Positions 5,406-6,788 of a stretch of DNA of 50,803 nt are shown piece after piece. Positions within the stretch are counted from its first letter, which is position 1. The number at the start of each line of letters is the position of its first letter. This DNA is from Promethearchaeota archaeon (GTDB lineage: Archaea > Asgardarchaeota > Lokiarchaeia > Sigyniarchaeales > SOKP01), in the NCBI GenBank assembly GCA_011364975.1, contig RDOE01000017.1, positions 1-50,803 on the forward strand, written 5' to 3'. A program made the position numbers and the translations under genes. The notes under the pieces were generated by a model that worked only from the letters and a program-made list of their open reading frames with translations, ran no database searches and had not been told where the DNA came from.

Positions 5406-6215
5406 TTAGCTTAACATTTTCTTTTTCCAAGCAGTATAACCTTTAGTTTCTTTTCCCCGATAGATTGCTCGTTTCCCAGTCTGTTTTTCATAAACTGCTT
5501 GTAATGTTTCCTCGTCAGCACCCATTAATTCTTCTTTCTTAATCTCCTCTTCAATCTCATATTCTTCTTCAATTCTTTTCACGCGTTTTAATACAGAGAA
5601 GACACCCTTATTCCATAAGACAAATCCTAAATAGACTAACAGAATTATTATAAACATCAAAACACCTACTAATAAAACCCATTCACCTGGACCAAAGGTA
5701 GTAATTATAAACATCCAGAGATCTGCTACTAGTTGCCAAAAGACTTGAGGCATAATTACAAAAACCAATGCGATTAAGAAGATGTAAATACTAATAAGCG
5801 TAACAGCAATTAAAAGTCTCAGTGTGGAATAATCTTCATATTTTTTAGCTAAAAGACGATCTTTAAACAATCTTCTGCACAATTTAAGAATACCGCCTCG
5901 AAAGAGGGTATAAAATAATACTAGAAGAAAGAGGTGTACTACAACGATACCAACAATGATTAGCGTGACAATTCCAGGACCTAAAGCTACAATAGCATCC
6001 CATCTTCCAGTTCTTATTAACCATCCTATGATTGTTAACCAGATTCCTAAGATAGTAATAACTGAGGCTAGAATGATGGAATAGTATATGGTTTTTGCTA
6101 TACGAAGATCCCAAGTACTTTAAGCTATTGGAGCGAACTGCTCTAGGTTTTAACTATACTCATCCAAGGGATCTGGTTCTCTAGTCGGTGCTTTCCTTGC
6201 TCTTCGTGGTGACAT
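5406..6215 (-). CDS. Multi-pass membrane protein gene interrupted by a 36-nt in-frame segment with two TAA stops (intron-containing gene or pseudogene)
   Basis: ATG 6215 preceded by GAGGA; reads MSPRRARKAPTREPDPLDEYS*NLEQFAPIA*STWDLRIAKTIYYSIILASV... then stays open and in frame with the listed 5406..5882 ORF. Confidence 0.8.
6117..6152 (-). other. 36-nt intervening sequence (candidate intron or miniature insertion with AGT duplication)
   Basis: AGT-TAAAACCTAGAGCAGTTCGCTCCAATAGCTTAA-AGT; inner GAGC/GCTC hairpin; TTAA near both ends; removal restores the ORF. Confidence 0.6.
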
Positions 6216-6353
6216 GTTAATATCCTCTACTAATTTTTAATATTTAATATTAGAATTTCAAATAACTATTACTTTATTATTAGTTTGAGTTTATTTGAAT
6301 ATTTTTGATATTTAAATATTAGGTGATTGATAAATATTTAAAAAATGAAATGA

Positions 6354-6788
6354 TTAAGGTGTTTTTAATACTGTGTGGCAGAAAGGGCATTTTTTCGTAC
6401 CAGGTTTAATGTCCTCACCGCAATATGGACAAAAAGTATGTTCTGGTTTAACCTCATCTTCTTCCTCTTCACCATCTTTTCGTTCAAATTCCTTTTTGGC
6501 AGGAAGCTTCTTTCCAGCCTTTCTAAGCACTTTTTCTTTAGGAGTTGATGGTATCTCTTCCTCTTCTTCTGACTCAAAAGGTTCATTAGAAAATTGAACC
6601 TTTGATACACAGGTTGGGCAGTAATCTTTTTTTCGATTCATAATGTAAAATGCATAAAAGATTGCGGCAATTCCGACGGTAGCGATGATTAATATAACCC
6701 ATACTACTTTTTGAAATGTTTCTAATGGTTTTCGTACAGTATATTCAACTTGTTTTTTACATATATTACAATATGCGTATTTTGTCAT
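6354..6788 (-). CDS. Membrane-anchored zinc-ribbon protein
   Basis: CNIC...TM segment...CPTC plus C-terminal CPYC/CPFC. Confidence 0.8.
   Translation of the reverse strand: MTKYAYCNICKKQVEYTVRKPLETFQKVVWVILIIATVGIAAIFYAFYIMNRKKDYCPTCVSKVQFSNEPFESEEEEEIPSTPKEKVLRKAGKKLPAKKEFERKDGEEEEDEVKPEHTFCPYCGEDIKPGTKKCPFCHTVLKTP

Follow-up and report, generated by a model that had tools for sequence, protein, structure and literature searches.

If a conserved protein-coding gene carries two in-frame stop codons near its beginning, is the full-length protein still made, and if so, how? The question is raised by a membrane-protein gene on the minus strand of the 50,803-nt stretch analysed here (the window; contig C85 of genome G000, from a Loki-type Asgard archaeon), in whose positions the coordinates below are given. 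From the ATG at 6215-6213 the frame reads MSPRRARKAPTREPDPLDEYS, a stop, NLEQFAPIA, a second stop and STWDLRIAK..., and thereafter it is open until the stop at 5408-5406. Both stops are TAA, nine sense codons lie between them, and both fall within a single 36-nt block. The reading favoured here, at a probability of roughly 0.55, is that this block is a recently gained intron of a protein-coding gene, spliced by EndA at a relaxed bulge-helix-bulge (BHB) motif of class hBH. The parts of the gene are as follows (^ marks a junction or cut).

5406-6215, minus strand: the whole interrupted gene, including the stop at 5406-5408; it encodes a conserved membrane protein with four transmembrane segments, of unknown function
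6223-6227, minus strand: GAGGA, a Shine-Dalgarno-like motif upstream of the ATG at 6215-6213; orthologues show agaggaa...ATG
6156-6215, minus strand: exon 1, 20 codons, MSPRRARKAPTREPDPLDEY; its amino acids equal the N-termini of the uninterrupted proteins P0001, P0002 and P0004
6120-6155, minus strand: the 36-nt insert, or proposed intron (AGUUAAAACC...AAUAGCUUAA), at DEY^STWD
6153-6155, minus strand: AGT direct repeat, copy 1
6150-6152, minus strand: first in-frame TAA
6120-6122, minus strand: second in-frame TAA
6117-6119, minus strand: AGT direct repeat, copy 2
5409-6119, minus strand: exon 2, 237 codons, STWDLRIAK...KKKMLS

An earlier first-pass annotation of this DNA had placed both stops in one 36-nt block flanked by AGT repeats, and the minus-strand translation bears this out. 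Removal of exactly 36 nt restores DEYSTWD, with ...DPLDEYSTWDLR as the peptide over the junction, and gives an uninterrupted product of about 257 aa; because of the AGT repeat, excisions moved by 1-3 nt (as far as 6117-6152) yield the identical product. Orthologues were found in 35/41 congeners and in 92/134 other genomes of the family. The frame is open for at least 247 aa in the 92 other family genomes with a match, and only in G000 does it measure 237 aa, stopping at the S codon. In each of the 21 orthologue loci that were fetched, an ATG stands 19 codons upstream and M[PA]RK..DPL..[YF]STWD[LIV]R is read without a break, and [YF]STWD is likewise uninterrupted in 44/44 metagenome loci (47 loci less three that lack the N-terminal part). 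All of these loci thus correspond to the 36-nt excision and its DEYSTW. The first-pass annotation had also offered a 42-nt GT..AG excision (6159-6118); it keeps the frame (..LDDTW..), yet it would remove the Y and S that are present in all relatives. Additionally, no in-frame ATG, GTG or TTG occurs from 6117 until the TTG at 5882, so that a stretch of 79 codons downstream of the insert, with two predicted membrane helices, lacks its own start. Reassignment of TAA was ruled out, as the window is densely coding in the standard code (code 11) and the gene itself terminates in TAA TAA.

The insert is a property of the species rather than of one assembly. The locus is present in 18 DNA runs. In two runs from two further studies, neither run being marked as a possible source of the assembly, DNA contigs cross the site without any gap (X12, 5700-6500; X18, 5851-6348). 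Both carry the insert unchanged, and the X12 contig differs from the assembly in 4/801 letters. The protein cluster of the species comprises six variants of 115-158 aa, on contigs of up to 85 kb, and every one is a truncated gene call; the insert appears to be fixed in the species. In one of these variants, P0142, five clustered residues near MPQVFWQLVADLWMFII differ from the gene (MPQFLWQLVADFWTFVI) and the other 110 are identical; the patch resembles P0004 of the sister lineage and suggests a small recombination tract. A fragment in G004 that is 97% identical proved to be a diverged orthologue that lacks the insert.

As to the origin of the insert, a multi-copy mobile hairpin was not supported. 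A blastn-short search gave no match longer than 17 nt to a second copy in the 3.74-Mb genome, and the 22-nt core of the insert is absent from three public collections, namely one-genome-per-species contigs, viral contigs and Joint Genome Institute (JGI) metagenome contigs. Neither a donor nor a local duplication was found, and the insert is unlike its own flanks.

Can the boundaries of the block be recognised by a splicing enzyme? The BHB geometry was taken from PMC2738675, where cuts fall between the second and third letters of each bulge, and classes were assigned with the classifier described in a preprint (10.64898/2026.10.13.758758), in which hBH is counted as 'canonical'. A class requires that at least one flanking helix (h or h') has at least two contiguous pairs. 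The classifier was checked manually against the G000 intron of tRNA-Lys(CUU), for which the script gave (4,4,1). Among the four equivalent registers of the 36-nt insert, cuts between 6156 and 6155 and between 6120 and 6119 give a central helix H of 4/4 pairs, an h of 2 and an h' of 0, which is class hBH. Over four registers, a canonical class arises by chance in 29/714 positions when the insert is moved inside the gene (4.1%), in 307/5000 dinucleotide shuffles (6.1%), in 1144/40000 random genomic 36-mers (2.9%) and in 1181/40000 cases with the insert at random sites (3.0%). The elements of the hBH motif are as follows.

6158-6161, minus strand: central helix H, 5' strand GAGU, in exon 1; pairs with 6122-6125 (G-U, A-U, G-C, U-G)
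6122-6125, minus strand: helix H, 3' strand GCUU, in the insert; letter for letter as in the cobO mini-intron described below
6155-6157, minus strand: 5' bulge AU^A, with the proposed cut between 6156 and 6155
6119-6121, minus strand: 3' bulge AA^A, well formed, with the proposed cut between 6120 and 6119
6162-6163, minus strand: outer helix h, 2 bp (A-U, U-G), partner 6117-6118
6126-6145, minus strand: inner hairpin UA+GAGC/GCUC+UA with a CAA bulge; its 3' strand adjoins helix H
6168-6173, minus strand: GAUCCC, partner GGGAUC at 6107-6112; an exon-exon helix compatible with the 36-nt BHB fold

In the proposed splicing, GAGU of exon 1 (6161-6158) would pair with GCUU of the insert (6125-6122) in the pre-mRNA, giving the central helix of 4 bp. 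The 3' cut would fall within the 3-nt bulge AA^A, closed by the short exon-exon helix and then by the GAUCCC/GGGAUC clamp, which lies outside h, has 6-7 bp, is GC-rich and is retained in the 36-nt BHB fold. The 5' cut would fall in AU^A, two letters past helix H. A two-subunit EndA would cut between 6156 and 6155 and between 6120 and 6119, and RtcB would ligate the exons to give ...DPLDEY-STWDLR..., as in all relatives.

The pairings named in the first-pass annotation were partly upheld. GAGC/GCUC, GAGUAU/GUACUU and GAUCCC/GGGAUC are all in the minimum free energy (MFE) fold, although the stability of that fold is like that of shuffled sequences. The imperfect BHB with an A-A mismatch does exist as a 'relaxed' register, but a register with a complete 4-bp helix was found three letters away. 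A 45-nt excision of class hBHBh' (H GAGU/ACUU, h 4, h' 3), which would use the same 5' cut site, was rejected: the invariant S-T-W would be lost with it, and its fold lies 17 kcal/mol over the MFE. In that scan, chance alone gives motifs of this strength at 0.9% of sites. The two 3' sites of the 6117-6173 region, GCUU-AA^A and ACUU-GG^G, compete for one exon strand.

The enzymes for such a reaction are present, and the same lineage has other interrupted protein genes. G000 encodes two EndA paralogues (PF01974; 208 and 206 aa; in the regions G000:C126:33180-33404 and C191:47707-47955) and one RtcB; EndA of the two-paralogue (alpha-beta)2 type is described as cutting relaxed motifs (PMC5829648). 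The cobO gene of G000 (CobA_CobO_BtuR; G000:C53:1194-1730, minus strand; locus L134) has one TAA within its Pfam match, caused by a 30-nt insert that splits the P-loop GRGK^GKTT. This insert is of class HBh' (H GGGU/GCUU, bulges AA^A and AG^A, h' 8, h 0). A stop at the cobO site was found in 6/36 genomes with a match, namely G000 and 5/35 congeners, and in seven other congeners the match begins only at profile position 14. Helix H covaries in two congeners (GGGC/GUCU and GGGC/GCUU). For cobO, G000 thus demonstrably needs mRNA splicing.

Similarly, the RNase HII gene has one or two stops in about 78/127 matching genomes of the family (a count from the table), including 14/39 other congeners, and its match measures 627-645 nt with stops versus 600 nt when uninterrupted. 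In the 20 loci that were fetched (L114-L133), the insert lies inside the catalytic DEAGR^GP; across the family it is 30 nt or sometimes 45 nt long. For 13/14 congener loci it is of class HBh' (H 4, h 1, h' 3-9), and a 30-nt excision restores DEAGRGP; for the six loci of other genera, the strict classifier gave no restoring canonical motif. Over 15 sequences, 92.8% of the RNase HII BHB pairs are formed, versus 30-37% with slid partners; three pairs changed on both sides, and the covariation score was matched by 1/500 shuffles. The patchy presence of this insert within the genus (14/39) suggests gain and loss. G000's own RNase HII gene (G000:C130:12518-13117) and its ADH_N genes have no insert.

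The tRNA genes of G000 are also heavily interrupted. The tRNA-Lys intron has the same hBH shape as the 36-nt insert (H 4, h 4, h' 1). ARAGORN detected 15 tRNAs (nine with predicted introns) and RF00005 detected 21; about nine RF00005 matches span 100-126 nt, and many G000 tRNAs carry inserts of about 30 nt. The small number of detected tRNAs and their many inserts agree with the extensive interruption of tRNA genes that the preprint 10.64898/2026.10.13.758758 describes, and multiple or non-canonical introns presumably conceal many of the tRNA genes. Splicing and rescanning of tRNA introns with ARAGORN was too permissive for systematic calibration.

The splicing reading thus rests on the exact insertion, on a cobO-style BHB core in the restoring register, on the machinery, on a preserved exon 1 with its translation signals and, indirectly, on evidence that the gene has been retained under selection; from these we infer cutting and ligation at the membrane-protein gene insert. 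Several observations weigh against it. There is no h' beside the 5' bulge, and 12 nt are unpaired ahead of the inner hairpin where a 3-nt bulge would be expected; helix H includes two G-U pairs, and h has just 2 bp, the minimum for the class. The 36-nt BHB fold, at -15.3 kcal/mol, lies 4.3 above the MFE of -19.6 kcal/mol and accounts for some 0.1% of the ensemble, and the MFE fold is itself no better than shuffles (z = -1.14; 24/200 shuffles were as stable). Over four registers, a canonical class arises by chance in 29/714 positions when the insert is moved inside the gene (4.1%), in 307/5000 dinucleotide shuffles (6.1%), in 1144/40000 random genomic 36-mers (2.9%) and in 1181/40000 cases with the insert at random sites (3.0%). 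The cobO and RNase HII introns are 30 nt long, of class HBh' (h' 3-9 bp, h 0-1), present in several species and backed by covariation. By comparison, the 36-nt insert was found in none of the 92 other family genomes and none of the 44 metagenome loci, which leaves it without comparative or covariation support. Contigs of RNA libraries (X19, X20) cover only 5700-5860 and 6361-6500, not the insert.

The genome-wide screens weigh in the same direction. Among 122 candidates for in-frame interrupted open reading frames (ORFs) in G000, ORF-restoring BHB excisions were not in excess over a wrong-handed control (28 vs 31 of 122), and two further scans for a BHB plus ORF fusion gave no excess either (145 vs 166; 153 vs 132). 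These screens missed cobO too and are therefore of low power. One attractive hit among them, guaA on C22, was discarded, since the gene is intact and the hit lay in its shadow frame. When the genome was scanned for NRGU-AN^A...GCUK-AN^A with ORF restoration, three places were returned: cobO, the membrane-protein gene and one that seems spurious. Since the motif was written after the cases were known, this count is descriptive and not a test.

The most serious competitor, although we consider it unlikely, is a recent inactivating insertion, in which a 36-nt piece of unknown origin entered with a 3-bp AGT duplication and the ORF is intact because too little time has passed. In its favour, two stops beginning 21 codons past the start are followed by 79 codons without a canonical start, the insert is confined to one species, and the BHB is weak, without h' and of a class reached by chance at 3-6% of sites. 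Furthermore, the gene was not found at E <= 1e-40 in 6/41 congeners, among them G017, which is 100% complete and where a 26%-identical match remains; loss of the gene is thus tolerated in the genus, which counts against the intron reading as well. Diversity within the species (4/801 letters in X12) is too low for a test of selection. Against an inactivating insertion, the boundaries fit the cobO BHB core in the sole register that restores the protein, and exon 1, the ATG and the ribosome-binding site are intact, the exon 1 amino acids being those of intact sister lineages. Nor is the G000 branch accelerated: its terminal length is 0.138 vs 0.126 for its neighbour, and G000 has three unique changes at otherwise invariant sites, where other orthologues have 0-4.

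The closest relatives bear on the same alternative. The closest proteins form one clade (support 100/97). Three of them, P0001, P0002 and P0004 (85-88% identity), are intact with N-termini the same as exon 1, while P0109 (90% identity, 192 aa) is called from the internal L66 and P0003 (85% identity, 234 aa) from the internal L of DLRIAK. An upstream interruption may be read from these gene-call starts in P0109 and P0003, neither of which is among the 135 family genomes; it is a matter of calls, not of DNA, and to that extent counts against the splicing reading. Among G000, P0109 and P0003, differences at conserved columns number 0/19, 2/34 and 1/22, where conserved columns make up 44-46%, and the column pattern among the truncated lineages is the same as among intact proteins. 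These few sites apart, the two further lineages with truncated calls (85-90% identity) differ only at variable columns, and the closest relatives with truncated calls thus appear still to evolve under purifying selection. One state change on the tree would suffice, and a clade of the three truncated lineages was not rejected by the approximately unbiased (AU) test (p = 0.24). If the lesion were common to G000, P0109 and P0003, then the gene remained functional with the insert present, and a pseudogene would be very unlikely.

It is improbable that the insert is retained in the mRNA and that a shorter functional protein is made from a downstream non-canonical start, with exon 1 as a dead leader. 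P0003 and P0109 are indeed called from internal codons, and G000 has genes that seem to lack an N-terminal ATG, GTG or TTG: in two ABC-ATPase genes (G000:C194:4562-6367 and C43:458-1255, both plus strand) and an SMC/Rad50-like gene (C169:53635-57096, minus strand), conserved N-terminal motifs stand directly after a stop, and none of these start codons occurs over 57-121 codons. In the C194 gene, an ATA follows GGAG at Shine-Dalgarno distance. Non-canonical start codons or unrecognised upstream exons are both possible for these three genes. At the membrane-protein gene, however, no Shine-Dalgarno-like motif precedes any candidate start past the insert, and the called starts vary among lineages (L25, L66, L100). 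Exon 1, moreover, is perfectly kept and encodes the family-wide DPLxxYSTWD tail.

A ribosome hop is highly improbable. In this case the peptidyl-tRNA-Ser would leave the AGU at 6155-6153, with UAA next, slide over 36 nt and land on the AGU at 6119-6117. The locus does have identical take-off and landing codons (AGU-UAA ... UAA-AGU), a stop directly after take-off and a hairpin in the gap, which PMC8211752 lists as features of T4 gene 60 and of the Magnusiomyces byps. Nevertheless, the hairpin begins 7 nt past the take-off codon, the nascent chain has just 21 residues, and the available text of a review of archaeal recoding (PMC8211752) names hopping only in T4 and yeast mitochondria. The AGT repeat, for its part, includes the A found after each of the BHB cuts. 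Matched codons are absent from the cobO and RNase HII inserts of the lineage, which hence need splicing; splicing is therefore the simpler explanation at the AGU site also. Finally, an assembly or sequencing artefact, for which only the 200 contigs and 6% contamination of the assembly speak, is ruled out by the identical gap-free insert in contigs of two other studies, and the same truncation recurs on at least five other contigs of the species, as their gene calls show.

Some further features of the gene and its surroundings were recorded. The source genome is 3.74 Mb in size and 99% complete. Pfam search of the membrane protein gave no family over its cut-off, and tRNA and Rfam scans of the whole 50.8-kb window gave no matches. 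The C-terminal 45 residues of the protein (..EETLQAVYEKQTGKRAIYRGKETKGYTAWKK, 5409-5550, minus strand) recur at 40-55% identity in the same genomes at the C-terminal end of proteins measuring about 900-1600 aa, e.g. one of about 985 aa at G000:C113:9870-10010; the stretch has the look of a small domain, of unknown function, that these proteins share. It is missing from a family of shorter paralogues (about 205 aa), and stops that had been flagged within paralogue matches of relatives were merely terminal stops. The product of the upstream neighbour (6354-6788, minus strand; 144 aa) combines a membrane helix with two zinc ribbons, a LITAF-like one and a second, C-terminal one. LITAF-like domains are mainly eukaryotic; the match to Pfam PF10601 scores 27.1 bits against a cut-off of 23.8.

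What follows depends on which reading is correct. If the 36-nt insert is spliced, then an intron has been caught very young: it is found in one species, the uninterrupted ancestral sequence is kept in all sister lineages, and its boundaries are exact. It comes with a direct repeat of 3 nt and without a donor sequence, and its relaxed motif mirrors that of the older introns in cobO and RNase HII. How a protein gene gains an intron could then be tested directly in a eukaryote-related archaeon, and the case would show how little structure EndA requires. If the gene is dead, then the short-insertion process known from Asgard tRNA genes also strikes protein genes. A hop, if real, would be the first case of programmed translational bypass among archaea, and it would stand in the lineage nearest to eukaryotes.

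In comparison with known systems, the hop of T4 gene 60 and the Magnusiomyces mitochondrial byp elements, as described in PMC8211752, are like the locus in having matched codons, a short gap that begins with a stop, and a hairpin; the gap is 36 nt here and 50 nt there, and the available text mentions no archaeal case. The BHB intron of Haloferax HVO_1309 (PMC7714728) is an EndA substrate in an mRNA, beyond tRNA and rRNA, but it lies in the 5' untranslated region. For coding sequences, the searchable literature, supplements not covered, offers cbf5 as the only archaeal BHB intron (PMC7714728). The cbf5 intron of Crenarchaeota (Watanabe 2002; Yokobori 2009, PMC2738675) is a short insert in a coding sequence with a relaxed or unconventional BHB, predicted cuts between the second and third bulge letters, a hetero-oligomeric EndA and a patchy pattern of gain and loss, all of which resemble the present case. 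Its splicing and cleavage by EndA had been shown earlier, as cited in PMC2738675, which also mentions unpublished complementary DNA for further species. Unlike cbf5, the 36-nt insert is in an Asgard host, interrupts a membrane protein of unknown function, belongs to a single species and is known from DNA alone.

The tRNA introns of Asgard archaea in the preprint 10.64898/2026.10.13.758758 are alike in being repeated, recent gains of short, unique sequences with no identifiable donor, with BHB-compatible boundaries in genomes with two EndA paralogues. The preprint deals with tRNA genes only, its main text does not contain the word 'mRNA', and it states that how these introns arrive is open; the host of the 36-nt insert is an mRNA. 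The closest likeness is to the cobO and RNase HII mini-introns, which are of the same lineage, are in frame and have stops inside. In all of them an exon xGGU or GAGU pairs with an intron GCUK and an A follows both cuts; the 3' end of the intron is ..AUGCUUAG, compared with ..AUAGCUUAA in the 36-nt insert. The insert is of the mirror class hBH, with nine extra unpaired letters on the 5' side between cut and hairpin, and is present in one species. The cobO intron is cut even though an outer helix is missing from its 3' bulge (h = 0); in the 36-nt insert it is the 5' bulge that has no inner helix. Nevertheless, the ends of the two are alike (5' A[AG]UUA..., 3' ...AAU(A)GCUUA[AG]), a hairpin adjoins the 3' strand of H in both, and the core of the insert (GAGU/GCUU, AU^A, AA^A) is almost that of cobO (GGGU/GCUU, AA^A, AG^A).

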